DNA of 64,000 nucleotides from Planctomycetota bacterium (GCA_965223845.1 CBDCXR010000004.1:2848001-2912000), one strand, 5' to 3'; numbered from the stretch's first letter, positions 34,734 through 50,584 are shown. Numbers and translations: made by a program. Notes: generated by a model not told the origin, from the letters alone.

Positions 34734-36485
34734 TCACGGAGAATGCGCGACGAGCGAATGATATCGCCCGATGGCGAGTCGCGGGTGCGCTCGCCAGTCG
34801 CGCGTCCCGGGCCAGCGCACACGGACGTCGACCGTCTGGGTCCCCGCCGGAACTCCGTAGCGGACGCGCGGATCGTTTGACGCGAAGTAACTGCCGTCTC
34901 GCTGGACTTCGTGAATCCGCCGCCAATCCTCCGCGCGGAGCTCGACCAACGCGCCGTGCACGAGGCGTCCGCGAAGCGACAAGCCGATCCACGCGCGGCC
35001 ATCGCCGGCTCGGTTCTCGAGGAGCACGGCCGCCCCGCCGGCATGTGTGACGACGAGATCGCCGTCGCCGTCGTTGTCGTAGTCCGCCTCGGCGACGCAT
35101 CTCCCGGCGAGCGCGCGCCGAAACCAAGCACCGGACGTACTCGACACGTCGCGAAACCTACCGCGGCCGTCGTTCTCGAAGAGCAGATCGGGCTGCCGAT
35201 ACGTCACTCGCTCGCCGGGGTGGAACGCCTCGGCGTTGTCGAGGACGTGACCGTTCGCGACGTAGAGGTCGGGATCGCCATCGAGATCGTAGTCGAAGAA
35301 GCGCGCGCCGAACCCGAGCGGAAGGTAGCTGGCACGCGCGAGACCCGACTGCGCGGTGCCGTCGATGAAGAAATCACCCTGATTGAGGTAGAGCGTGTTC
35401 GTCTCTCGGCTGAAGTGCGTGAGGAAGTAGTCGAGTCGACCGTCGCTGTCGACGTCGGCGCGCGTGATTCCCATGCCCGCTTCCACTTCCCCGCCTTCGT
35501 TGAACGCGAAGCCGGTTTCGAGTGCGATGTCTTCGAAGCGAGCCGCGCCGAGGTTGCGCCAGAGCGTGTTTGCGACGGAATCGTTCGCGACGAGGATGTC
35601 CGGATCGCCGTCGCCGTCGAAGTCCGACGCGACGACACCGAGACCCTTCGCGGCAACTCGTCCCGAGACCGCACCGATCCCGCTCGCGCCGCTGACATCC
35701 CGGAAGCGGCCGCCGCCGAGATTGAGGTAGAGCCGATCGGCGACCCCGTCGAAACGCCGCGGATTGCAGTAGCTCGGAACCGCGCGCGTCGAACCGGGCG
35801 GCTTGGCCGGGCAGCCCGCGTGCTTCCGCGTGTCGTACGCGAGATAGCGCACGACATAAAGATCGAGATCGCCGTCCGCGTCGACATCGGTCCAGGTCGC
35901 GCTCGCAGACCACGACGGCGCCTCGTCGCGATCCGCGCTCAAGATCCCCGACTCCCGCGAAACGTCCACGAACCGGCCGCCATCGTTTCGGTAGAGTACG
36001 TCGGGGCCGTAGTTGGCGACAAAGAGATCCGGGGCGCCATCACCATCGAAGTCACCGACCGCGACGCCCATGCCGTATCCGCGGTCTCCGGCTCCGGCCG
36101 CGTCCGGTACGCGCTCGAAGCGACGGCCGCCGTCGTTTCGGTAGAGTACGTTCGGCGGATCTTCCTCCTGCGCGCGCTGCGTTCCGATGGCGTCGGGGTG
36201 GCCGTGCCCTTGGACGAGATAGAGATCGAGATCCCCGTCCCCGTCGTAGTCGATCCACGCGGCACCCGAGAGCATCGTCTCCGGGAGATATCGCTTCCCG
36301 GTCGCGCCGGTCATCGTGACGAACTCGATTCCAAGCTTCTTCGTCACGTCGACGAAAGCATCGTCTGCGTCCGCGCTCGTCGGTGCGGCGGAGATGAGCC
36401 CCGCGAAGACTACGGCGCGCGCGACCGCGGCGCAGCTCCGGACGGCGCCGGTCGCGCTCACGCGTCCTCCTCGACTCGCTGCCAC
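34734..36485 (-). CDS. CRTAC1-family FG-GAP + ASPIC/UnbV protein
   Basis: YLPETMLSGAAWIDYDGDGDLDLY, GYGMGVAVGDFDGDG, EAGMG, C-terminal SYFASNDPRVRYG..VRWPG. Confidence 0.9.
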   Translation of the reverse strand: MAASRGGRVSATGAVRSCAAVARAVVFAGLISAAPTSADADDAFVDVTKKLGIEFVTMTGATGKRYLPETMLSGAAWIDYDGDGDLDLYLVQGHGHPDAIGTQRAQEEDPPNVLYRNDGGRRFERVPDAAGAGDRGYGMGVAVGDFDGDGAPDLFVANYGPDVLYRNDGGRFVDVSRESGILSADRDEAPSWSASATWTDVDADGDLDLYVVRYLAYDTRKHAGCPAKPPGSTRAVPSYCNPRRFDGVADRLYLNLGGGRFRDVSGASGIGAVSGRVAAKGLGVVASDFDGDGDPDILVANDSVANTLWRNLGAARFEDIALETGFAFNEGGEVEAGMGITRADVDSDGRLDYFLTHFSRETNTLYLNQGDFFIDGTAQSGLARASYLPLGFGARFFDYDLDGDPDLYVANGHVLDNAEAFHPGERVTYRQPDLLFENDGRGRFRDVSSTSGAWFRRALAGRCVAEADYDNDGDGDLVVTHAGGAAVLLENRAGDGRAWIGLSLRGRLVHGALVELRAEDWRRIHEVQRDGSYFASNDPRVRYGVPAGTQTVDVRVRWPGTRDWRAHPRLAIGRYHSLVAHSP

Positions 36486-37206: not shown

Positions 37207-39477
37207 TCAGTCTGCTACGCACTCCTCGTAGATCGCGCGATACGCGGCGAGCGCGACGTCGTACGCTTTCTTCGCCGCCTCCTTCTCCGCGGGTCGGATC
37301 CGCCGGTGCTTGCTTTCCCAGCACCGGTCGACGCCTTTGAGGCACCACTCGGCGCTCCGCCGCGACGCGCGGATGGGCTTCCCACCCACGTGGACGAACA
37401 CTGGATTCGTGTGCGAGCTCGGCAGAATCCTCAGTGCGATCCAGCTCGAGTACTCGACCGGGATCTTCAGCTCGACGTCGTTCATCTTGCCGTCGGCGAC
37501 GATTTCCCGTCGTGCCACCGGATAGCCGTTCACGACGACCTCGAGCGGAACGATGCGGCTCTCGCCGATGCGCGCACGCTCGATGTGCCAGTAGGGCTTC
37601 TGCGCGTAGGATCGATCGCGGAGACCGGGATTCGCCTTCTCGTCGAGGAGCGCGGCGACCTTCGCCTTCACCGTCACCGTGCCCGCAGCGTCCAGGTGCA
37701 CTTCGCTTTTCTTTGTTCCGACCTCGAGGCCGTCCACGCTGAAATCGATGAGGTGGCTCATGCCATCGCCGACATACGAGCGCCCGTTCTTGATCTCTTC
37801 GCAGTAGCGATCGAAGTCGAGTGCGCCGTCCATCTTGCAGTAGATGCGCCCGAGGCCGACGCGATCACCGTAGATGCAGGGGAAATCGGTTTCTCCGCTG
37901 ATCCGGGCGCGGAAACCACAGTTCAGCGTGTGGTACCAAATGTTGAGCTCCCACACGTAGGGCGTGTCGACCGACGAGATAAAATCGACCGCTCCGTGAA
38001 CGACGTCGACGATGTACTCGTTCGCCCCGATGCCATCGTAGGGCGGGATCACGTAGTTCGGGAGTTCTGCCGTATCGACCGCGAGCCCCCATCCCGAATG
38101 AGAGAAGCCGACGACTCCCCCCTGCTTCTGCGCCCACTGGAGAATCGGGAGATCCCAGCTCGGCCACTGTTCGACGCGCTCGGTCCCCGGGTAGTCGTCC
38201 TCCTTCAGACGGAGCAGGCAGAGATGACCGGCGTGATCCGAGGGGAATCCCGAGACCTCGACGTCGTAGCGCATCTTGTAGTTCTCGGTGCTGAGCTCGT
38301 TCACTCGCCCTTCGAAGAACTGCTTCTGGAAGTACCAGCAAGGACCCCACGTGAGCACGCAACCGATGTTGAGATCCTCTCCGAGCTGGTGGCGGAACAT
38401 GTCGTTCGGATTCACTCCCGCGGTGGGGCTCTCGTAGTGTAAACAGCCGCCGCCGTGGACGTGGTGGTCGCCGCTGTACCACCCGAGCTTCTTCGCATGG
38501 ATCCAGCGCTCGAGCGGGAACGATTCGCGGTGTGATTTCACCCCTTCGGGGATCACGACCTGTTTCTTCTTCACGCGGTACTCGGGGCCACGCGTATACG
38601 TGATTTCGTACTCGCCGGACGGGACGTGGATCGACTCGCCCGTGGCCCGGTAGACCTGAGGGTGAAAAAAGAAATCGGGCGCGAGGCGCCGCGACGGCGT
38701 CGGGTAGATCCGCCCGCGTTCGTCGCGCACGATGAAGGACGCCATCACCGGCTGGCCGTCTGTATCGCGCACGTCGAGTACGAGCTCAACGGACGGGACA
38801 CAGCGAAAGAGAATGTTCGCCTCGTTGCGAAAACCGATGTCCTGCGTTCCCTGTCCGACGTTGAAGCTGATCTTCGCTTCGCGGCGACCCGCGTCGCGCG
38901 AGTAGATCTCGACGATCCGGTACTCGAGCTCGAGCCCCGAAAGCCGCCGCTCGAGCGGCTGGCCGTTGTACATCCGGATGTCCATCCAGCGATCGCCCAC
39001 ATCGGCCGGTCTGATCGTGACGGGCGGGTCCTTGCTTCCCGTCGAACGCTTGTAGACCGGCGCGGCATTCGGGCTCTCGACGGCGAGCTCCGCCGTGACC
39101 CCCGCCTCGTTGTGAACGCGAACGAGGAACACGCGCCACCCCTGCATGACGAGCTCGGCCCGCGCCGGTCCGGCCGCGACTTTCACGCGACTCTCGGGAT
39201 TGATGTGGACTGCGGTGAGGACTCGCGGAGCGAGCACGCGCTGGATCTCTCTCACCGCGCGCGATCCGTCCGCATCGTCGAGCGCGGCCTCGAGGGCGTC
39301 CTTCTGCACGCTCGAGAGCGGGCTGCCGACGTACGCGAGTGCCTCGGCAACTCTCTTCACCTGGGCCTTGAGCGGCTGCGCGTCGACGCCCGAGACTACC
39401 GCCAGCTCTTCCGCCGAAGTTCCGACGCTGACGAGCACGATCGCCGCGGCGACGAAGATCTCTCCGAACTTTCTCAT
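37207..39477 (-). CDS. CehA/McbA-like PHP metallohydrolase, exported
   Basis: Signal peptide; INPESRVKV, RLAPDFFFHPQVYR, GWYSGDHHVH, SGETDFPCI, SHTNPVFV; ATG 39477. Confidence 0.8.
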   Translation of the reverse strand: MRKFGEIFVAAAIVLVSVGTSAEELAVVSGVDAQPLKAQVKRVAEALAYVGSPLSSVQKDALEAALDDADGSRAVREIQRVLAPRVLTAVHINPESRVKVAAGPARAELVMQGWRVFLVRVHNEAGVTAELAVESPNAAPVYKRSTGSKDPPVTIRPADVGDRWMDIRMYNGQPLERRLSGLELEYRIVEIYSRDAGRREAKISFNVGQGTQDIGFRNEANILFRCVPSVELVLDVRDTDGQPVMASFIVRDERGRIYPTPSRRLAPDFFFHPQVYRATGESIHVPSGEYEITYTRGPEYRVKKKQVVIPEGVKSHRESFPLERWIHAKKLGWYSGDHHVHGGGCLHYESPTAGVNPNDMFRHQLGEDLNIGCVLTWGPCWYFQKQFFEGRVNELSTENYKMRYDVEVSGFPSDHAGHLCLLRLKEDDYPGTERVEQWPSWDLPILQWAQKQGGVVGFSHSGWGLAVDTAELPNYVIPPYDGIGANEYIVDVVHGAVDFISSVDTPYVWELNIWYHTLNCGFRARISGETDFPCIYGDRVGLGRIYCKMDGALDFDRYCEEIKNGRSYVGDGMSHLIDFSVDGLEVGTKKSEVHLDAAGTVTVKAKVAALLDEKANPGLRDRSYAQKPYWHIERARIGESRIVPLEVVVNGYPVARREIVADGKMNDVELKIPVEYSSWIALRILPSSHTNPVFVHVGGKPIRASRRSAEWCLKGVDRCWESKHRRIRPAEKEAAKKAYDVALAAYRAIYEECVAD

Positions 39478-39611
39478 GATGCTCTCCCTACCCGAGCGTC
39501 TCCGGACGGCGTCGCAGTCCGGACCATCGTTCCCACGATCGGAACTCCGCCGGTGAACATTTCGCCGACGGATTCGCATCGTACCCGCAAAGCCCGCGCG
39601 CAGCGGATCGA

Positions 39612-41030
39612 TTACGCGATGATCTCCCGGATCACGCGGCCGTGCACGTCGGTCAGCCGGAAGTCACGGCCCTGGAACCGATACGTGAGACGCTCGTGAT
39701 CGACTCCGAGGAGATGCAGCATCGTCGCATGAAAGTCGTGCATGTGGACGATGTTCTCGACCGCGTTGTAGCCGTAGTCGTCCGTCGCGCCGTAACTCGT
39801 TCCGCCGCGGATCCCGCCGCCGGCCATCCACCACGAGAATCCGCGGATGTGATGGTCGCGACCGTTTCCCTGCGCCATCGGCGTCCGTCCGAACTCTCCG
39901 CCCCAGACGACGAGCGTGTCTTCGAGCATGCCGCGCTGCTTGAGATCCTTGACGAGCGCCGCCGCCGCGCGGTCGACGTAGCGCGCAGTCGTCCGCACGC
40001 CGCTTCCTACGCCGCCGTGGTGATCCCACCCGCGATGGTAGAGCTGGACGAATCGCACGCCGCGCTCCGCCATTCGCCGCGCGAGAAGGCAGTTCGATGC
40101 GAAGGTGCCGTCCGGGCGCTCGACACCGTAGAGATCGCGGACCGCTTGCGGTTCCGACGAGAAATCGACGAGCTCCGGCACACTCGACTGCATGCGAAAC
40201 GCCATCTCGTACTGACTGATGCGCGTCGCGATCTCGGGATCTGCGAGGCGCGCGTCGAGGCGACGATTGAGCGCGCTCACCGCGTCGACGACGACTCGCT
40301 GTCCCTCCCGAGAGACACCCGGCGGCCGACTCAGGTAGAGGACCGGGTCGCCCTTCGATTGGAACTGAACGCCCTGGAACCGGCTCGGGAGGAAACCCGC
40401 CTGCCACTGGCGCGAGGCGATCGGCTGATCCTGCGCGCCCCCCACCGACACGAGCACGACGAAACCCGGCAGATTGCGCGACTCGTTGCCGAGTCCATAC
40501 CAGAGCCACGAGCCCATGCTCGGGCGTCCGGAGATCGACGTTCCCGTGTTCATGAACGTGTGGGCCGGATCGTGATTGATCTGTTCCGTCCGCATCGATC
40601 GGAGGATGCAGATGTCGTCCGCGATCGAGCCGATCTGCGGAAACGCCTCCGAGATCTGCTGTCCCGAAGCGCCGAAGCGCTGGAACGGTATCTGCGGCCC
40701 GAGGCAGGTCAGTTTTCTTCCCTGGAGCTGCGCGATCGGCTGGCCTTCGGTGATCGACTTCGGCATCGGCTGACCGTTGGCCGCGGCCAGCTTCGGCTTG
40801 TAGTCGAGCGTTTCGAGGTGCGAGGCGCCGCCCGCCATGACGAGAAAGATCACGCGCTTCGCGCGCGGCCTGAAGTGACGCCCGACCGGGATCGGCTCTC
40901 CCGCGACGTCGCTCTGTAGGAGAGACGAGAGCGCGATCGTCCCCATCCCGGCCGCGGTCTGGCCGAGGAAGGTTCGGCGGGAAACTGCCGTGCGCAGCGG
41001 ATCGAGTTCGGGGGTCGACTGCAGATTCAT
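39612..41030 (-). CDS. DUF1501 protein (Tat-exported)
   Basis: SRRTFL, RAKRVIFLVMAGGASHLET, GRPSMGSW, GWDHHG, GGEFGRTP, GRDHH; ATG 41030. Confidence 0.93.
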   Translation of the reverse strand: MNLQSTPELDPLRTAVSRRTFLGQTAAGMGTIALSSLLQSDVAGEPIPVGRHFRPRAKRVIFLVMAGGASHLETLDYKPKLAAANGQPMPKSITEGQPIAQLQGRKLTCLGPQIPFQRFGASGQQISEAFPQIGSIADDICILRSMRTEQINHDPAHTFMNTGTSISGRPSMGSWLWYGLGNESRNLPGFVVLVSVGGAQDQPIASRQWQAGFLPSRFQGVQFQSKGDPVLYLSRPPGVSREGQRVVVDAVSALNRRLDARLADPEIATRISQYEMAFRMQSSVPELVDFSSEPQAVRDLYGVERPDGTFASNCLLARRMAERGVRFVQLYHRGWDHHGGVGSGVRTTARYVDRAAAALVKDLKQRGMLEDTLVVWGGEFGRTPMAQGNGRDHHIRGFSWWMAGGGIRGGTSYGATDDYGYNAVENIVHMHDFHATMLHLLGVDHERLTYRFQGRDFRLTDVHGRVIREIIA

Positions 41031-41037
41031 CGCTCGT

Positions 41038-44034
41038 TTAGTTCCGCGTGATGGTCTCGTGGAGATTGAAGAGGACGCGCGCGACGGCCGTCCAGGCCGC
41101 GAGCTCGACCGATTCTTCGCCCTTGGCGCCGACGAGTCGCCCGGCCGCTTCGGCGTCCGCGGCGTATGCGCGCTGCTCACTCGCGTAAACGGTCTGGAGA
41201 ATCGCGAGCTCGTTCGCGTCCGGACGGCGTGATGTCGTCTCGACGAAGGCCCACTCGATACGCGCGTCGGTGGACGCTCCGCCTTCATCGAGAATGCGCC
41301 GAGCGAACGCGACCGCCGCTTCGACGTAGCTCGGGTCGTTGAGAAGGACGAGCGCCTGCTGCGGAATGTTCGAGCGCGGACGCTCGGCCGTGCACTCCTC
41401 ACGGTTCGGGGCGTCGAACGCCATGAGGCTCGGATGGAGAAACGAGCGCTGCCACCACGTGTAGAGCCCGCGGCGGTAGCGGCTCTCGCCGTCGTCGGCC
41501 TTCCACTGCCGCTTCGGGAAATTGAGGTGCGCCCAGTACCCGACGGGCTGGTGCGGCTTCACACTGCGTCCGCCGATTCGCCGCGCGAGGAGTCCGGAGT
41601 GTGCGAGCGCTGTGTCGCGCACGAACTCCGCGTCGATCCGCCAGCGCGACTGACGCGCGAGGAGCTGATTGTAGGGATCGCGCTCCGCCGCGGTCGCCGT
41701 CGCGATCGAACTCTGGCGGTACGTCGACGAAAGAAGCATGAGCCGGATCATGTGCTTCACGTTCCAGCCGCTCTCGACGAACTCGACCGCGAGCCAGTCG
41801 AGAAGCTCGGGATGTGTCGGCGGCAGTCCCATCGCGCCGAGATCGTCGAGGCGCGACGAAAGACCGGCGCCGAAGAAGAGCTTCCAGAGTCGATTGACGA
41901 AGACGCGCGCGGTGAGCGGATGGTCGCTCGCGACGAGCCAGCGCGCGAGATCGAGGCGTGTCGCGCGCCGATCTCCCGTGTCCAGCTGGCCGAGAAAGGC
42001 AGGAATCGCGGGCGCGACGACGTCGCCGGTCGTGTCCATCCAGTCTCCGCGGAAGAGCACGCGAACGATGCGCGGTTCGGCCGGGGCCGAAACGACGCAC
42101 CGCGCCATCGAACCTTCGAGCTTCTTCTTCTCCGCCTCGACGCTCGTGCGCTCCTTGCGCGCGTCCTCGAGGTGTGGAGCGATCGAACGGTAGTGCTTCG
42201 CAATCACCGCACGTTGTGCGTCGTTCCGCTCGTCCACCGCAACTTCGAGCGCCGCACGGACGTCGTCCGGAACACTCCCCCCACCTTCGACGACCCGAAA
42301 GTAGAAACCGTGCCCGCCGGAGCCGTTGTTCACCTTGACGAGTAGATCGTTCACTCCCTCCTTGAGCGGCGCGGCGACCTTGTCTTGGTCGGGAGCGACA
42401 CCCCGGAGGATCTCCTTCGAGAGAATCTCCGAGCCGTTCAGCCAGACGCGGATTCCGTCGTCGCTGCCGAACGACAAATCGACGCTCCGCGGGGCGTCCG
42501 ATTCGATCGTGCGATAGAGGTACGTCGCGGAGTTTTGCCCGCTCAGCTCGTGAGCTTTTCCGTCGACCCACTCCTCTCGCTTTCGCCAGCGGCGTGCGTC
42601 TCCCTCGCCAAAGCTCGCCCCGAGATCGACTCGGGCGCCGGGGCCTCCGGCGGCGCCGCTCTCTTCCGGCGGAAACGCCGTTCGAAACGCCGCCGAGGCG
42701 TTCTCGGCAGCGAACGGTCCGACGGAATGCCACACGCCGAGGCGCGGGGGCGGCTGTTCGGCGAGTACCTGCGATTCCCAGGCGCGCTGATCGCGTTCGA
42801 TCTCACGGCGGAGATCGTCCGGCGGATCGTCGATGCGACTTCGAAGCTCGTCGAGCTTCGCCGTGAGCCGAGCGAGCTGCACCTCGTCGTCGGGCGATGG
42901 AACCGGAATCCCGGCGTCGCGATCCATGATCGGCGCCTCGCGGATGTCCGCGAAGAAGGCGCCGAGCGAGTAGAAATCGCGCGCGGTGTACGGATCGAAC
43001 TTGTGGTCGTGGCACTCGGCGCAGCCGACGGTCGCGCCCATCCAGACGGCGGAGATGTTGCGCACGCGATCCGATTGGTTCTTCGCCTCGTACTCCTTCG
43101 GCTGCGCGCCGCCTTCCTCGGTCGTCTGATTGAGCTTGTTGTAACAGGACGCCACGCGCTGCCATACGGTGGGTTCAGGGAGCAGATCCCCCGCGAGCTG
43201 CTCGATCGTGAACTCGTCGAACGGCTGGTTCTCGTTGAAAGATCGAATGACGTAGTCGCGATACGGGGTCACGTTTCGCGGGTTGTCGCTGTGGTAGCCG
43301 CGCGTATCGGCGAACCGAACGAGGTCGAGCCAAAAGACGGCCATACGCTCGCCGTAGTGCGGCGAGGCGAGAAGGCGTTCGACGGCTTTTTCGTACGCGT
43401 CGGCGGAGGCGTCGAGCAAAAACGCATCGAGCTCCTCGCGCGTAGGCGGAAGCCCAGTGAGGTCGAAACTCAGACGCCGAAGGAGCGTACGCCGATCGGC
43501 GGCGGGCGATGGCGCGAGCTTCTCGCGCTCGAGTCGCGCGAGGATAAACCGATCGATCGCGTTCCGCGTCCACTCGGCTCGTTCGGGATCCGGGACCTTC
43601 GGCTGATCGGGGACGACGTACGCCCAGTGCTTCGCCCACTCCGCGCCCTCTTCGATCCAAGCCCGAAGAGTCCGGATCTGCGCTTCGCTGAGCGCGGGTG
43701 CGATGTCCGCGGGCGGCATTCGCTCGGACGGATCCGTCGAGCTCACGCGCGAGATGAGCGCGCTCGAGTCCGGATCACCCGCGACGAGCGCGCGGTGTCC
43801 GCTCTTCAGTGCCGCAAACGCCGCGGTCCGGTCGTCGAGCCGCAGTCCGGCCTCCCGCTTCCCCGCATCGGGTCCGTGGCAGCGGTAACAGTTCTCGGCG
43901 AGGATCGGACGAACGTCTCGATTGTAGTCGACTTTCTTCGCCGACTCGTCGCCGCACACGCCCGCGAGCGGGGCGAGCGCAGCGAGAACGAGCGGGCCGA
44001 TGCCGCGGACGAAGGGGCGGGAGCAGAAAACCAT
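41038..44034 (-). CDS. Planctomycete cytochrome c (PSCyt1)-DUF1549-DUF1553(PSD1) protein with a PA14-like insert
   Basis: YNRDVRPILAENCYRCHGPD, CAECHDHKFDP, PTHPELLDWLA, PQQALVLLND; insert GSDDGIRVWLNG; ATG 44034. Confidence 0.93.
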   Translation of the reverse strand: MVFCSRPFVRGIGPLVLAALAPLAGVCGDESAKKVDYNRDVRPILAENCYRCHGPDAGKREAGLRLDDRTAAFAALKSGHRALVAGDPDSSALISRVSSTDPSERMPPADIAPALSEAQIRTLRAWIEEGAEWAKHWAYVVPDQPKVPDPERAEWTRNAIDRFILARLEREKLAPSPAADRRTLLRRLSFDLTGLPPTREELDAFLLDASADAYEKAVERLLASPHYGERMAVFWLDLVRFADTRGYHSDNPRNVTPYRDYVIRSFNENQPFDEFTIEQLAGDLLPEPTVWQRVASCYNKLNQTTEEGGAQPKEYEAKNQSDRVRNISAVWMGATVGCAECHDHKFDPYTARDFYSLGAFFADIREAPIMDRDAGIPVPSPDDEVQLARLTAKLDELRSRIDDPPDDLRREIERDQRAWESQVLAEQPPPRLGVWHSVGPFAAENASAAFRTAFPPEESGAAGGPGARVDLGASFGEGDARRWRKREEWVDGKAHELSGQNSATYLYRTIESDAPRSVDLSFGSDDGIRVWLNGSEILSKEILRGVAPDQDKVAAPLKEGVNDLLVKVNNGSGGHGFYFRVVEGGGSVPDDVRAALEVAVDERNDAQRAVIAKHYRSIAPHLEDARKERTSVEAEKKKLEGSMARCVVSAPAEPRIVRVLFRGDWMDTTGDVVAPAIPAFLGQLDTGDRRATRLDLARWLVASDHPLTARVFVNRLWKLFFGAGLSSRLDDLGAMGLPPTHPELLDWLAVEFVESGWNVKHMIRLMLLSSTYRQSSIATATAAERDPYNQLLARQSRWRIDAEFVRDTALAHSGLLARRIGGRSVKPHQPVGYWAHLNFPKRQWKADDGESRYRRGLYTWWQRSFLHPSLMAFDAPNREECTAERPRSNIPQQALVLLNDPSYVEAAVAFARRILDEGGASTDARIEWAFVETTSRRPDANELAILQTVYASEQRAYAADAEAAGRLVGAKGEESVELAAWTAVARVLFNLHETITRN

Positions 44035-44277
44035 CGTGTCTCGATCTCGGGTCTTCGGGCGATTGCCAACGCTCGTGCTCGACCTCGAGCGAAAACCCCG
44101 TGCCGAGCGAGACGGTGATACGCCCCCGCTCGGCGAGAGCGTTGGGGGAAAGTCAGCGGGTCCATAATAGGGCGAAGACCGCGCGAGACGTCGAGCGAAA
44201 ACCGTGCCGGGCGCGGTAGACGAGTCGCTCGAGCGCCGGATCACGGCACGGTATCCGGGCCCACGATAGATCAGTCC

Positions 44278-44364
44278 ACTGGCCCGTCGAGATCGGTGGC
44301 GATCATCCCGGACGAGAAGAAGATCGTCTCTTGCAGCGACGGAGTCGCGATCTGGGACGTCGAG
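44278..44364 (+). pseudogene. Isolated WD40-repeat relic
   Basis: TGPSRSVAIIPDEKKIVSCSDGVAIWDVE resembles the HTGPVRSVAFSPDGKKIVSGS-DGTVRIWDV consensus; no continuation. Confidence 0.4.
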
Positions 44365-44548
44365 CCGACTCGAGATCGTCACCCTCGCCTCTCCAGACGA
44401 GGGCCGATTCCTCTCGGTCGACTGGTCGCCGGACCGCCGGCGCGTAGTCGCGGGGCAAGCCGACGGATCCGTGCACGTCTGGACAGTGCGTCCGTCGCTG
44501 TCCGCCGCCCGGTGATCGAGATCCGCTCAGCCGCGATCGATTCGGCCG

Positions 44549-45364: not shown

Positions 45365-45569
45365 CTGGCCCGGGTTTCTCACCAGATTTGGTGAGCGAAG
45401 CGGCGAGCCGCCGTAGGTCGTGAACTGACAAGGAGGTGTCGCCATACTGACCGGAGGTGTGCTCTTTGCACGGTGAGGATCAGGGTGGCGGCGCATCCGA
45501 CGCTCAGTTCGCGCCAAGAAGACGGCGCGGTCGCTGGCGCAGTAGACTCTGGTGAGAAATCCGGACTAG
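45365..45569. mobile_element. 205-bp MITE-like element with 22-bp imperfect terminal inverted repeats
   Basis: Left end CTGGCCCGGGTTTCTCACCAGA; right end (reverse complement) CTAGTCCGGATTTCTCACCAGA; internal inverted repeats GTGAACTGA/TCAGTTCGC; no credible coding content. Confidence 0.7.
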
Positions 45570-46600
45570 GCGTCGTTTCCGTCCTCGCCCCCGTCAGCGT
45601 CTTCGGAGTCGTCGCCGAACGCACGGAGGAGATAGTGCCGGTACAGAATCCCGGCGGCCTCGTCCGCCGGATTGCTTGAAAGCTGAGAGAGCAGGATCCC
45701 GAGCCCCTCGTCGGCGCGATCCTTCGAGTGCAAATAGAAGTACGCCGCGACGAGCGGACGCGCACTCGCGTCGAGATCGGCGACTCGCTTCGCGTACGTA
45801 CCGTCGCCCGGAAAGTGCGAGCGAATGTCCCGCGGCAAGTACTCGGTGACGTCGTCGTAGCTCAGCGCTTCCTCGAGAAGAAGCTGCGCGTGCGCGGGTT
45901 TGTCGAGGGCGAAGAACACCTCGGCGAGTAGGAGGGGATAGAGCGGACTCCGGTCGCGCCGGAAGCGCTCGGCGAAGACGCGTCCGGCCGCGCGAAACTT
46001 CCCCGCCTTCATGAGGTCGAGACCCGGCTCGGCTCCGGTCTCGACGACGCGATTCTCGCGCGCCGCGCGCTTTGCGGCCGCGACGACCCCTTCGAAGGGA
46101 GGAAGGCGTACGTCGATGTAGGGATCCGAGTCGCCCGGTAGATCCGGGCCGAAGACGCCCCCGCGCCGGTAGACCTCGTACGTGTCGAGCCCGAGTGTGA
46201 GCGAGCCCTGCTCCGCGAGAGGATGGGGGTACTCGACGACGGTCGGCGGAATCCCCCACACCGGATGGAGTCCGTAGCCGTAACCGTAACCTCCGTAGTG
46301 CCAGGTCGGATACCTGACCGCACGTCGGACGAGCCCGCGCCGCGCGCGGAATCGGCCGGATCCCGTCGCCTCCGCGCTCCGCCCGATCGTCAGGCCACCT
46401 GGCCCGCGGACCACGCCGCGGCTCGGCGCGGCGGAAGGACTTGTGACGACGGGAGGGGTCGGCGTCGCTTTCGGCGCCGGCTTAGAAGGCGCGGCCTCTT
46501 GCGCCGAGAGCGGAGCGGACATCAGCACCCCGGCGATCACCGCCACGGACGCGATCGACGAGAAGGCGAAGACGTGAGGGCGGCCTTGGACCGTTCGCAT
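45566..46600 (-). CDS. Exported hypothetical protein with Pro-rich and Gly/Tyr-rich segments and a TPR-like C-terminus
   Basis: Signal peptide ending APLSA-QE; YGGYGYGYG; helical C-terminus; ATG 46600. Confidence 0.6.
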   Translation of the reverse strand: MRTVQGRPHVFAFSSIASVAVIAGVLMSAPLSAQEAAPSKPAPKATPTPPVVTSPSAAPSRGVVRGPGGLTIGRSAEATGSGRFRARRGLVRRAVRYPTWHYGGYGYGYGLHPVWGIPPTVVEYPHPLAEQGSLTLGLDTYEVYRRGGVFGPDLPGDSDPYIDVRLPPFEGVVAAAKRAARENRVVETGAEPGLDLMKAGKFRAAGRVFAERFRRDRSPLYPLLLAEVFFALDKPAHAQLLLEEALSYDDVTEYLPRDIRSHFPGDGTYAKRVADLDASARPLVAAYFYLHSKDRADEGLGILLSQLSSNPADEAAGILYRHYLLRAFGDDSEDADGGEDGNDA

Positions 46601-46729
46601 GTGGAATCCTCCGTTGGAGTCCCGCAGTTCGCGCGGCGCGATCGCACGATCGTCGCGAAGCGAACCGAGACGACGAGCTACTCTGGGCTCTACTTCTCCT
46701 GCTCTCCCCCCCATTGTAAGGTGGGCGTC

Positions 46730-49700
46730 ATGGGGACTTCAAAGAAAGAGGCCCGTTCCTCGCGCGGACTTACGGCGATTTTGCTAGTCGCGATCGCGGC
46801 CGGGAGCGCGGCGATTCTGTGGTGGAATCGCCCGCCGACGGATTCCGCTCGTGACGTCGCCGCCCCCGGCCCAGTCGGCGAATCCGCCGCCGGCCGGCCG
46901 ATCGAAGCGCCCGAGTTCGAGAAGCTCCGCCGGCGCACGATTCCCGGTGCCGATCGTTTCGAAGTGGAGACTCTCGCCGCCGAACTGGCTCCGAAGATCC
47001 GCGCACTAGAGGCCGAGTGGCGGGATCTTCCCCGTGATCGTTCCAGCGACGACGCGTCAGACCTAGTGGCGCCGACGTTCCGGTGGACGGCGCAGCACGC
47101 GGACGCTCGCCCGGCGGCCAGCATGGCGGACGGACTTCGCGCGCTGCTCGGTCGAGGCGTGGAGTCGCTCGACCACGTCGCGCTCAAGATCGTCCGGGTC
47201 GAGCCCGTCACGGAAGGGGAACTCGCGACGGAGCTGCGCTTCGAGCTCGTGGTCCGTCCGAGCTCGGGCGCGCACGTGAGCTGGACGGGGCGGGCACGCG
47301 TCCTCTGGACGTCCGAACGCAAGATCCGCGGGTGGAAGACGCTGTCCGTCGACTCGGTCGAGACGACCGGCCCTTTTCTTCGCGATGTTTCCGCGGCCGT
47401 GCTCCACGCGAACGCCGTCTACCACCAAGTCCTCGCGCACGGGATCGACCATTTCCGGGACCGACTCGACGCCGCCACGGGGATCGACGTCTACGGACAC
47501 TACGGAATCGCGGTCGGCGACGCGAACTCGGACGGCCTCGACGATCTCTATCTGCCGATGCCGCCGACCGTACCGAATGTCCTTCTCCTCGGCCAAACCG
47601 ACGGAACGTTTCGCGACGCCAGCACGGAGAGCGGCGCGAACCTCCTCGACGGCACGACGCAGGCGCTATTTCTCGATCTCGACAACGACGGGGACGACGA
47701 CATCGTGGCCCTCCTCGACGCGGGCGCGTGCGTGCTCCGCGGCGATGGCCGCGGGCGATTTGCCGTCGTTCCCGACGCGATCAGCGCGGGGTCCGCGCGC
47801 GGCTCACCGATCACCGTCGCTGCCGCCGACTACGACGCCGACGGCATCCTCGATCTCTATGTCGGTTCCTACGTCTTCTGGCGCGACCTATCGGGCGCGG
47901 TCGGCTCGCGTCTCCCGACGCCCTACCACGACGCGCAGAACGGTGCCCCGAATCGACTCCTCCGCGGGCGAGGAGACGGAACGTTTGAAGATGCGACCGC
48001 AGTCGCGGGGCTCGGAACGGTACACCGATTCACGTTCGCGGCGAGCTGGGCGGATTACGACTCGGACGGCGATGCCGACCTCTACGTTGCGAACGACTTC
48101 GGCAGCAACCAGCTCTTTCGCAATCGCGGTGACGGCACGTTCGAGGACGTCGCTCGAGTCGCGGGAGTCGTCGACATCGGACCGGGGATGAGCGTCGAGT
48201 GGTTCGACTACGATCGCGACGGCGATTTCGACCTCTACGTCGGAAACATGTTTTCCGCTGCCGGGCAGCGCGTCACGAACGAGCGCACTTACAAAGCGGG
48301 ATCTCCGGATCTTCAGCACGCGTACCGGAGACACGCCCGGGGGAATTCGCTCTACCGGAATCGCGGCGACGGCACGTTCGAAGACGCGAGTGAGTTTGCG
48401 CGAGCGACGTTCGGCCGCTGGGCCTGGGCGAGCGGGAACGTCGATTTCGATCTCGACGGTCACGACGATCTCTACGTTCAAAACGGCTTCGTGAGCAACG
48501 CTCGCGGACGCGAGCTCTGAAGCTTCTTCTGGCGACAGGTCGTGTCGCAGTCCCCCACGGCCGCGGTCAAGATCCAGCGGTACGAAGACGGCTGGAACGC
48601 GATCCAGCGCATGATCCGCGAAGACGAGTCGTGGAGCGGATGGGAACGGAACTGCGTCCACCTCGCTCGCGGCGACGGGAAGTTCACGGACGCGTCGGCG
48701 GTGAGTGGAGCCGACTACGCGACGGACGGACGCGCGTTCGCCGTCCTCGATGTCGATCGCGACGGACGTCCCGACCTCGCGCTACGGAATCGGAACGCGC
48801 CGACGCTGCGGATCGTGCAGAACGTGTGGCCCAATCCCGGGAGGTGCGTGTGGCTCCACCTCGAAGGGAGCACCGGCAACCGGGGCGCGATCGGGGCAGT
48901 CGTCGAAGTTCGTGCGGGGAAGGACCGCAGAGTGATTCCCATGACCGCCGGCTCCCGATTTCTCTCGCAGTCGAGCCGATGGCTCCCGATCGGTCTCGGC
49001 GACGCGCCCGGAGAAGTCGCGATCGCCGTTCGTTGGCCGGGCGGACGAACGCAAGAGCTCGGCGAACTCCAGCCGGGACACCGGTACTGGATTCGTGAGG
49101 GGGAGAGGCCCCGCGGAGAAGAATTGTCCGCGCGGCGAGAGTACGCCTCGATCGAGCCGAGCGACGCGCCAAGGAAGACCGGAGTCGGCACGTGGCTCAT
49201 CGAGCGCATTCCCGCTCCCGACTTCGAGCTGAAGAGAGTCGGCAAGAGCGAAATGCTGAATCTTCGCGGTCTGCGCGGCGCTCCCGTGCTTCTTCATATC
49301 CTCTCGCCGACGTGTGCCGTGTGCGTCGCGGCAGCACCCGAGCACCGACGGATCGAGAAGATCGCGACGGACGCGGGAGCACAACTCGTCCACGCGATCG
49401 TCGCGCGCAACGATCAAGACGCCGAGGCAGAGCGAATCCGCTTCGTCGAAGGGGCAGGCTACGAGGCGCCGGCGGTCGCGGCGGACGACGCGTTCGTCGC
49501 GGCGTACAACGTGCTTCACCGCGAGATCTGGAATCGCCGTCACGACCTCGCCGTGCCGACGACGATTTGGATCGACCCGGGCGGCTACGTCGTCCGCGTC
49601 GATCGCGGTGCGCTCGATCCGGATGCCGCTCGAGCGATCCTCGCGCAGTTTCCGCGATCGCCGAAGGAGCTGAGGACGCTCGCGATCGGTGATGCGTCCG

Positions 49701-50584
49701 GACCACTCGTCTACCCGGAAGCGTTCAGACGAAATTTCGCGGCTCTGGGAAACGCTTACCGCGAGGCCGGCTTCCCCGAGCTCGCGCGGTCCGCGTTCGC
49801 AGAGGACGCCGCAAGATCACCGAAGAGTTCGAACGCCCGCTTCAACCTCGCGGTCGTCGCGGCCGAGAGGGGTGACACCGCCGCCGCGGAGCGCATCTAC
49901 CGGGAAGTGATCGAGTCCGGTGAGTACTCGGGCGATGCGAGGAACAATCTCGCCGTCCTCCTCGCACAGCGGGGAGAGACCGATGCCGCGCTCCGTCTAC
50001 TCGTCGATCTCGTTGCGGGGAATCCCGCGCACGGCGAGGCGCCGCTCAACCTGGCCGGCATCCATCTTCGTTCGGGACGCGCCGAAGAAGCAGTGAAGGT
50101 GCTCGAGTCTGCCGTCCGAACGGACCCCGAGTCGGCTCGCTTTCGTCGCCAGCTCGCCTACGCACGGTACTCGTTAGGCGATGTCCACGGCGCCGAACAG
50201 GATTACCGACGTGCGATCGAGCTCGATCCGCTCGCATCCGAGTCCTACCGCGATCTCACCGCGCTCATCTTCGCCCAGGGACGCGAGCGCGAAGCCGCGG
50301 AGCTCGCCCGTCGCGGGATCGCGGTCGCGGGCGAAACCGCAGCGCTCCGGAATGCACTCGCGCTCGCGGAGATCGCGATCGGCCGGACGGAGGACGGACT
50401 CAACGGACTCCGGCGCGCGATCGAGCTCGACCCAAAACTCGTCCCGGCCTACGTGAACCTGATCGCGCACCTCGACGACCTGGGTCGCGAGAGTGAAGCG
50501 ACGGAGAATCTCGAACGGCTGCGGACGATCTCGCCGGAGGCGGCGGCGAGGGTGAGGCGGCGGCTGCGTGAGAGTGGGAAGTGA
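46730..50584 (+). CDS. FG-GAP/ASPIC-UnbV + CxxC redoxin-like + TPR protein with an in-frame UGA at 48518 (candidate selenoprotein)
   Basis: The two ORF-track ORFs are in frame and joined by EL*SFFWRQVVSQSP. SECIS-like hairpin at 48532-48548. N-terminal TM anchor, FG-GAP repeats, GSRFLSQSSR..VRWPGG, PAPDFEL..PTCAVC, C-terminal TPRs. Confidence 0.75.
48529..48550 (+). promoter_or_regulatory. Candidate bacterial SECIS element
   Basis: UGA + 11 nt + GCGACA-GGTCG-TGTCGC; the loop starts with G; the stem is extendable by CTG/CAG with one bulge. Confidence 0.55.

Follow-up and report, generated by a model that had tools for sequence, protein, structure and literature searches.

A 64,000-nucleotide stretch of DNA from a Planctomycetota bacterium (GCA_965223845.1 CBDCXR010000004.1:2848001-2912000), referred to here as the window, contains two plus-strand open reading frames (ORFs), 46223..48520 and 48542..50584, that share one frame and are parted only by a TGA at 48518-48520. 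An earlier prediction made from the sequence of the window (the original prediction) had pointed out this arrangement and had proposed that the two ORFs form one selenoprotein gene. The question raised by this locus is whether the internal TGA is a stop between two genes or a sense codon within a single gene and, in the latter case, which residue is inserted and what it does. We found that TGA 48518-48520 (U597) is the sole internal stop when 46730-50584 is translated with TGA read as selenocysteine (Sec, U), and that the gene so delimited (46730-50584, plus strand) spans 1284 codons and has its own TGA terminator at 50582-50584. Based on comparison with related sequences, the UGA at 48518-48520 is very probably decoded as selenocysteine, and the explanation that we strongly favor overall would combine one gene, Sec decoding, and a redox relay within the protein.

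An in-frame TGA conserved across a gene family

When the organism's own genome (7.93 Mb in four contigs) was searched by tblastn with residues 521-700, all eight motif-bearing paralogs had a stop at the same column. These eight sequences, which share 33-53% identity over the query stretch, all read [DE][LT]-stop-S-x-[FYW]-W-R. A protein search of 41 related genomes gave matches in 22 of them, comprising 88 match rows, and the in-frame TGA was present in 86 rows; of the other two, one stops short of the site and one has a TAG elsewhere. We fetched 61 of the 88 rows for a codon check, and all 61 align across residue 597. The aligned codon is TGA in 60 of these loci and TGC in one (L406), while TAA and TAG, which the original prediction had named as signs of a truly split gene, occur in none of the 60 stop-bearing loci.

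A DNA pattern scan (TGA plus motif) of species-representative genomes returned at least 113 further stretches. Among the matches listed were records from Roseibacillus, Akkermansiaceae, Verrucomicrobiales, Pirellulaceae, Planctomycetaceae, Phycisphaerae, Holophagales, Thermoanaerobaculia, Bryobacterales, Candidatus Multivorans, and others, and most carriers among them were metagenome-assembled genomes (MAGs). DNA patterns were used in place of a single-protein relative search, for which low-complexity peptides had been chosen and which gave generic FG-GAP proteins at 24-33% identity. The closest named homologs are from an uncultured marine bin and a Planctomycetota MAG, at 41% identity. In total, we collected 155 distinct TGA-bearing sequences from many assemblies, and all 161 motif matches are TGA. 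Of the 155 unique sequences, 103 came from the TGA-containing pattern, and the other 52 were ascertained by protein and are free of DNA-pattern bias. The family occurs in Planctomycetota, Verrucomicrobiota, Acidobacteriota, and others, and by this comparison TGA is a conserved sense codon in it. An alternative genetic code, in which TGA would specify Trp or Gly, was rejected as the explanation because the gene's own terminator is also TGA.

Several members of the family stand out. In a Pirellulaceae MAG (L127), a Cys directly precedes the Sec position (SGD-C-U-SFFWRQVV), giving a CU dipeptide as in some other selenoproteins. Three loci (L254, L257, and L258, from genomes G003, G021, and G001, respectively) form a divergent sub-branch in which the peptide after the TGA reads x-T-F-x-E-N-V-G-R-R-S and not SFFWRQVV. 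At L156, at L211, and at L125/L154, which share a contig, two TGA-bearing copies of the family are found a few kilobases apart, indicating that the family expands partly by tandem duplication.

The TGA is also present in independent contigs, a check that the original prediction had proposed for raw reads: contigs from four public runs (two samples of one study, possibly the source) contain the segment 48200-48544 without a single difference. Contig depth in these runs (X1-X4) rises from about 5-27 to 143-558 over 48512-48559, a 10- to 30-fold increase, and many assembly contigs end exactly over this interval, which holds the TGA and the hairpin described below. Such a depth jump and such contig breaks are expected if an element of about 33 nucleotides (nt) is common to many genes in the sample. 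The TGA and its hairpin act like a dispersed repeat in assembly graphs, and metagenome assemblies of these genes may be fragmented as a result.

The start of the gene is inferred to be the ATG at 46730. The open frame extends back to 46223, and this upstream part overlaps a divergent gene at 45566-46714. The residues around the internal TGA read ...GFVSNARGREL-U-SFFWRQVVSQSP..., and the features assigned to the gene and to its read-through product are as follows:

46730..50584, plus strand: whole putative selenoprotein gene, read through the internal TGA
46769..46825, plus strand: N-terminal hydrophobic stretch after a basic start, residues ~14-32 (LTAILLVAIAAGSAAILWW), read from the translation
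47507..48829, plus strand: FG-GAP/VCBS beta-propeller, CRTAC1-like, residues ~260-700 (Pfam, AlphaFold2 model, Foldseek)
48518..48520, plus strand: in-frame TGA, U597, predicted from its conservation to be read as selenocysteine
48521..48655, plus strand: propeller insertion, residues 598-642, ending at Cys642 (model secondary structure, paralog alignment, co-variation)
48532..48548, plus strand: hairpin resembling a selenocysteine insertion sequence (SECIS), stem 48532-48537/48543-48548, loop GGUCG 48538-48542
48887..49087, plus strand: UnbV_ASPIC, residues 720-786 (Pfam E 1.5e-10; score 41.2 bits, cut-off 23.4)
49211..49621, plus strand: ResA/TlpA-like thioredoxin-fold domain, residues 828-964, with C862-A-V-C865 at 49313-49324 (Foldseek, sub-cut-off Pfam)
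49742..50539, plus strand: C-terminal tetratricopeptide repeat (TPR) region, residues ~1005-1270 (Pfam TPR_19 6.5e-17, TPR_16 1.4e-16, other TPR families)

On the read-through protein, Pfam also detected FG-GAP_3 (E 6.6e-41, six stretches) and FG-GAP (E 1e-15). Two models, AhpC-TSA (24.0 bits, cut-off 26) and Redoxin (23.6 bits, cut-off 26.6), matched residues 828-964 just below threshold. The PAPDFEL...PTCAVC motif noticed earlier in the downstream half is present and supplies cysteines C862 and C865. Residues ~14-32 may form a signal anchor or transmembrane helix, and the protein is probably membrane anchored at its N terminus and extracytoplasmic.

A paralog within the window places the TGA in the fold. 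This gene, at 34734-36485 on the minus strand (a detail that the original prediction had left out), encodes a continuous, Sec-free protein of 583 amino acids (aa) with FG-GAP_3 and UnbV_ASPIC domains; the insertion that bears the Sec, the ResA-like domain, and the TPRs are all missing from it. As had been claimed, it runs through the site without interruption: BLASTP aligns the two proteins across it, and the paralog lacks about 36-40 residues starting exactly at the TGA. The TGA thus marks the point where an insertion between two propeller strands begins.

A SECIS-like hairpin and the selenocysteine machinery

The hairpin GCGACA-GGTCG-TGTCGC lies at 48532-48548, separated from the TGA by the 11-nt spacer that had been reported, and forms a 6-bp stem with a GGUCG loop; the codons of the peptide W-R-Q-V-V-S supply its sequence. 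We found that all six pairs form in 51/52 of the protein-ascertained TGA genes and in 98/103 of the pattern-found TGA genes, compared with 2/115 Asn-type genes and 1/10 Cys-type genes. Paired cells amount to 98.3% in the true register and to 12-68% after displacement of the 3' partners by 1-3 columns, and the covariation score was reached by 0/500 shuffles. Pair 18-28, for example, occurs as AU (24), GU (13), GC (6), CG (4), and UG (1) among 49 distinct rows, with position 18 being the third base of an Arg codon and position 28 the first base of a Ser, Pro, or Ala codon. At positions 24 and 27, both third-codon (synonymous) sites, the base is invariant among TGA genes and varies freely among Asn genes. 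The hairpin, whose covariation the original prediction had put forward as a check, covaries and is specific to the TGA forms.

The variants of the family behave as a SECIS would. The ENVGRRS sub-branch has a different, 7-bp stem and again a GGUC loop; L256, the sole exception among the 52 protein-ascertained genes, has a 7-bp hairpin shifted by 3 nt; and the Cys-type gene L406 has no hairpin. As a positive control, we used an FdhA-like gene of the same genome, in which an 11-nt spacer precedes a 7-bp stem with a GGUCU loop. A crude genome scan (UGA, 9-15 nt, a 6- to 7-bp stem with a GGUC loop, and open frames on both sides) returned 11 sites, of which six belong to this family, one to FdhA, and one to a gene reading W-U-H-L-C; the other three are of low complexity and chance-like. 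The FdhA-like molybdopterin enzyme gene (L401; G000:C4 ~4984549, minus strand) reads NCSRA-TGA-HAPTVAG. A candidate thioredoxin-like selenoprotein with a WUxxC motif, reading AATW-U-HLCHNG, lies at G000:C4 ~6836567 (minus strand).

There are no sel genes in the window, as had been noted; the genome itself encodes SelA (E 1.3e-135), SelB (a 684-aa frame containing a winged-helix 3 domain), SelD (307.8 bits, cut-off 125), and a 98-nt tRNA-Sec with anticodon UCA. SelA was also found in 40/41 relatives, including all 22 carriers (22/22), and in 5/5 carriers from other phyla, which answers the original prediction's proposal to check for the machinery in TGA-bearing genomes. Pyrrolysine was considered as a second recoding system and rejected, with no PylS (21 bits against a cut-off of 178) and poor cloverleaves. 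ARAGORN "tRNA-Pyl" calls with CTA anticodons at G000:C4 1643846-1643919 and 6791124-6791203 are probably false.

Co-variation of residue 597 with Cys642 and a CxxC motif

An AlphaFold2 model of residues 225-975, computed with an 80-sequence alignment, had a pLDDT of 86.6 and a pTM of 0.80. Its best Foldseek match in the PDB is murine CRTAC1 (9etn_A; E 4.8e-27, TMt 0.69), and the thioredoxin-fold domain superposes on B. subtilis ResA (1st9_A/2h1b_A; TMt 0.86-0.88). Propeller strands continue past the site in the model. U597 is predicted to directly precede a helix at 598-604 (SFFWRQV), with a second helix at 616-630, and Cys642 (TGC 48653-48655, in an ERN-C motif) is predicted to open the next propeller strand. 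U597 and Cys642 are likely close in space because they stand at the two ends of a loop insertion.

For the analysis of co-variation, we aligned the 400 residues after the site and dropped sequences with fewer than 330 open residues (23 U-type and 21 N-type). Cys642 was found in 107/132 Sec forms, 0/94 Asn forms, and 2/10 Cys forms. The CxxC motif at 862/865 is present in 130/132 Sec forms (the other two have CxxS), 0/94 Asn forms, and 2/10 Cys forms; at these positions the Asn forms have SxxC (38), SxxS (10), AxxC (6), or other combinations. The two Cys forms that have both Cys642 and CxxC, L384 and L389, are nested in Sec clades. A motif-based count agreed with the alignment-based one. This three-way co-variation suggests an intramolecular redox relay and is the main support for the order Sec597 to Cys642 to CxxC. 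The notion, already present in the original prediction, that the Sec may be recycled by the protein's own CxxC domain has gained support from it.

We propose the following mechanism. The organism's SelB/tRNA-Sec system would decode UGA 48518-48520 within the single gene 46730-50584, directed by the SECIS hairpin (6-bp stem, GGUCG loop) 11 nt downstream. The Sec would stand where a 45-residue insertion in the CRTAC1-like propeller starts, at the N terminus of a short helix, and would act there as a redox-active nucleophile on a propeller-held substrate. Once oxidized, Sec597 would be joined through a selenenylsulfide to Cys642, which lies at the opposite end of this insertion, this bond would be reduced by the CxxC motif (C862/C865) of the protein's own ResA/TlpA-like domain, and the CxxC motif would be re-reduced by a membrane thiol-electron shuttle. 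Provided that the Sec is real, we give such an intramolecular relay slightly better than an even chance.

Several observations weigh against this explanation. SelA is present in 5/5 Asn-type genomes as well, so its presence is a necessary condition only and does not discriminate. The 63 nt after the UGA fold no better than shuffled sequences (z 0.05; 95/200 shuffles at least equal), and thermodynamics alone therefore does not single out the hairpin. An Rfam scan of 48300-48800 with E up to 10 gave no match, and because the hairpin is short and lies in the codons of conserved residues, part of its conservation is protein constraint. Around the site and the insertion, the pLDDT of the model is only 60-73. 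Cys642 is missing in 25/132 Sec forms, and no CcdA/DsbD-like or other conserved partner gene adjoins the gene in the window or the family genes in the flanks of the pattern-found loci. Finally, most non-Sec homologs carry Asn, not Cys, which is unusual for a selenoprotein and means that the residue is not universally a redox center.

The Sec forms that lack Cys642 and the absence of a reductase partner gene among the neighbors would also suit a different role for the residue, in which Sec is inserted as a metal or metalloid ligand or as a binding residue of the propeller, and the CxxC domain acts elsewhere. Homologs tolerate Asn, Ser, Asp, and Ala at the site, residues that commonly occupy ligand or Ca-binding positions in FG-GAP propellers. 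However, Sec tracks both CxxC and Cys642 in the counts given above, with neither found in any of the 94 Asn forms; moreover, the two Cys-type homologs nested in Sec clades retain Cys642 and CxxC. The modeled position of Sec at a helix N terminus likewise resembles that of redox Cys and Sec residues, which sit at helix N termini in thioredoxin-fold proteins. We consider a ligand role possible but unlikely.

The remaining alternatives concern the decoding itself. Read-through of the UGA by another route, for example by a near-cognate Trp or Cys tRNA with help from the hairpin, would yield the same full-length protein, which would then not be a selenoprotein, and downstream hairpins can stimulate stop-codon read-through in general. 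Yet this hairpin shares its spacing and GGUC loop with the SECIS of the organism's own FdhA gene, SelA is present in all carriers examined, and the site alternates with Cys and not with Trp. A sense codon would also be the simpler solution, yet TGA was kept in 60 of the 61 fetched loci. Insertion of a residue other than Sec is, in our view, very improbable.

Were the TGA a true stop, the cell would make an N-terminal partial propeller and a separate C-terminal half from the GTG at 48542, and the hairpin might serve translational coupling or RNA stability. Gene callers do annotate two genes, the closest database relatives are C-terminal halves of 677-718 aa, and the GTG lies eight codons downstream. 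The original prediction had described this GTG as buried in the hairpin and lacking a ribosome-binding site, and both statements hold: the GTG, at nt 25-27 counted from the TGA, takes up the final base of the loop together with the first two bases of the 3' arm, and no AGGAGG-like site was seen 5' of it on inspection of the sequence. It belongs to a conserved Val-Val codon pair that is also found in the unsplit Asn-type proteins. Across genes that are 33-53% identical, the stop is invariably an in-frame TGA, without any drift toward a gap or an overlap, and a split would cut the propeller between strands, while full-length unsplit homologs exist and are the ones without the hairpin. Two separate products thus appear scarcely credible. 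A pseudogene or an assembly or sequencing error in one record, for which the bare presence of a stop codon would speak, has a negligible probability given the TGA with 0 differences in contigs of four runs and the same codon in 155 distinct sequences.

Relatives, genomic setting, and known systems

Selenocysteine decoding of a single gene, the reading that we prefer, has to be seen beside the many relatives that lack Sec. There are many full-length Asn-type homologs, 1200-1300 aa long, that share its architecture. In the column of U597, 108 aligned homologs have Asn (93), Ser (8), Ala (5), Asp (1), or Cys (1; P0049). A scan for the pattern with AAY returned at least 120 stretches and yielded 115 family sequences, and the 80 titles among the matches listed were all from Acidobacteriota. 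The corresponding TGY scan returned 22 stretches, of which 10 are family members, all with TGC; P0049 and L406 are Cys forms beyond that scan. A Sec/Cys pair exists, and Asn is the common alternative. The original prediction had named alternation of TGA with Cys or Ser codons as a sign of recoding, and such alternation is borne out for a minority of Cys forms (the 10 loci, P0049, and L406); the dominance of Asn (93/108) was not foreseen.

We inferred a midpoint-rooted tree with FastTree (LG) from 203 sequences, each represented by the 150 residues preceding the site and the 200 following it; one in three of the Asn forms was retained, and 11 U and 21 N sequences were excluded because of insufficient length. 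All deep branches are Sec forms. The Asn, Ser, Ala, and Asp forms, together with the Bryobacterales Cys forms, make up one nested clade (support 0.94), in which P0049 (Cys) is sister to the rest, and three Sec forms are sister to the whole clade. Three other Cys forms sit singly within Sec clades. This topology tentatively fits Sec as the older state with later losses, in a sample that is pattern biased and a tree whose root is not established. On the same tentative footing, a nested, mainly acidobacterial branch would have replaced Sec by Asn, Ser, or Ala and lost the partner Cys and the CxxC motif. Taking the observations together, we lean toward a large and ancient family of extracytoplasmic selenoenzymes, the first with a CRTAC1-like beta-propeller as catalytic domain, which would have a built-in Sec-Cys-CxxC relay and up to eight copies per genome in marine and soil Planctomycetota, Verrucomicrobiota, and Acidobacteriota, with Sec ancestral and subsequent losses to Cys and then to Asn, Ser, or Ala.

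The neighbors of the gene in the window encode an ABC ATPase, a Pfam-less ORF, an NAD-binding/DUF2867 protein, a sigma factor, and fasciclin and CIA30 proteins. For a survey of flanks at 83 pattern-found loci, 150 of 190 flanking ORFs were kept. Six of the 150 are further copies or pieces of the family, and Pfam was run on the 66 longest of the remaining 144. Among the 66 ORFs scanned, LTD and/or CotH domains were found in seven, DUF1501 in three, sulfatase in three, and PSD/PSCyt-type domains in two. Large LTD proteins adjoin family genes at L195, L152, L155, L153, L192, L193, and L171, with CotH also present in L195, L153, and L192. Elsewhere in the window, a 1114-aa PSCyt1/PSCyt2/PSD1 protein is followed by a 596-aa DUF1501 protein at 39612-44382 (minus strand), a pair typical of Planctomycetes-like genomes, whose genes by themselves point to a probable planctomycete-like organism; a 790-aa ORF at 37207-39579 has no Pfam match; and tRNA-Ala(TGC) lies beside tRNA-Ile(GAT) at 26817-27085 (minus strand), as is usual in the spacers of ribosomal RNA operons.

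In public annotation, each of these genes is divided into two, one part called "CRTAC1/FG-GAP" and the other "TPR/redoxin," as the original prediction had anticipated. Database relatives of the C-terminal part are 677-718 aa long and named "tetratricopeptide (TPR) repeat protein" or "redoxin domain-containing protein"; they are downstream halves called as separate genes. The Asn-type homologs are annotated as "FG-GAP-like repeat-containing protein" or "TPR repeat protein/peroxiredoxin." An NCBIfam scan found no model for the family: its matches were limited to TPR models and NF041054 (30.7 bits, cut-off 300), with none to GOS_B NF041374 or GOS_C NF045500. Table 1 of a May 2026 review, which covers 119 families and subfamilies, has no FG-GAP, VCBS, CRTAC1, or UnbV protein, and the text of that review does not contain the words "repeat," "propeller," "Planctomycet," "Verrucomicrob," or "Acidobacter" (PMC13188914). 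The absence from this table and from the NCBIfam models agrees with the earlier claim that this is not one of the classical families. In the accessible portions of three further sources, the family is not among the seven new families that the GOS study obtained via Sec/Cys pairs (PMC2398784), it differs from the nine new families of deep-Sep, which demanded at least two Cys homologs among the top ten matches (PMC12013277), and it is unmentioned in the main text of BSepDB (PMC13326102). Full-text literature searches retrieved no paper on an FG-GAP/UnbV/CRTAC1-like selenoprotein, the supplementary tables of surveys, which could list it, being outside their scope. We believe that the family is probably undescribed.

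The demand for Cys homologs creates a blind spot in discovery pipelines, as far as the accessible descriptions of two of them go (PMC2398784 and PMC12013277). If our reading is true, the prevalence of Asn among the non-Sec relatives would have hidden the family from standard searches for Sec/Cys pairs. Confirmation would add a new fold class and a new pattern of cellular location to the prokaryotic selenoproteome. With several copies per genome, the family may exceed all other selenoproteins in number in some PVC and acidobacterial genomes and would represent a major hidden share of cellular selenium demand in these lineages. The split annotation distorts gene counts and domain statistics, and the three-way co-variation of Sec, Cys642, and CxxC provides a redox mechanism that can be tested directly.

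As a recoding mechanism, this is the usual bacterial one; the novelty lies in the family, in how large and widespread it is, in the fold that bears the Sec, and in the predominance of Asn among the non-Sec relatives. The signal is like the FdhA/fdhF-type SECIS, with an in-frame UGA, 11 nt, and a stem-loop with a GGUC-type apical loop; the loop of the E. coli fdhF SECIS also reads GGUC. It differs from the SECIS of the organism's own FdhA in having a stem of 6 bp rather than 7 bp and in encoding another peptide (WRQVVS), in a protein unrelated to molybdopterin enzymes. Like the CRTAC1/ASPIC/UnbV family, the protein has an FG-GAP propeller followed by UnbV_ASPIC, with Pfam scores above cut-offs and the match to 9etn_A; unlike that family, it has a helical insertion of about 45 residues with Sec and Cys642, an N-terminal anchor, a ResA-like domain, and TPRs. 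We know of no chemistry for members of the CRTAC1 family, vertebrate CRTAC1 included.

The C-terminal half resembles ResA/TlpA oxidoreductases in its thioredoxin fold with a W/x-C-x-x-C motif and its weak NF041054 match over residues 820-1059. In contrast to the UGC-containing TlpA family and NF041054 (ResA-like WAxxUGC), the Sec lies about 265 residues upstream of the CxxC motif and in another domain. The Asn-type homologs from Terriglobia and Bryobacterales share the length of 1200-1300 aa, the domain order, about 50% identity, and the SFFWRQVV motif, but have Asn (or Ser, Ala, or Asp) for Sec, Val or Ile for Cys642, SxxC, SxxS, or AxxC for CxxC, and no hairpin, and they probably have no redox function at the site. 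Atypical 2-Cys peroxiredoxins and glutathione peroxidase (GPx)-like proteins pair a peroxidatic with a resolving residue. By functional analogy only, the proposed Sec597 and Cys642 would correspond to such a nucleophile and second Cys, recycled here by a thioredoxin-fold CxxC motif; unlike in those proteins, the fold that would hold them is a propeller insertion.

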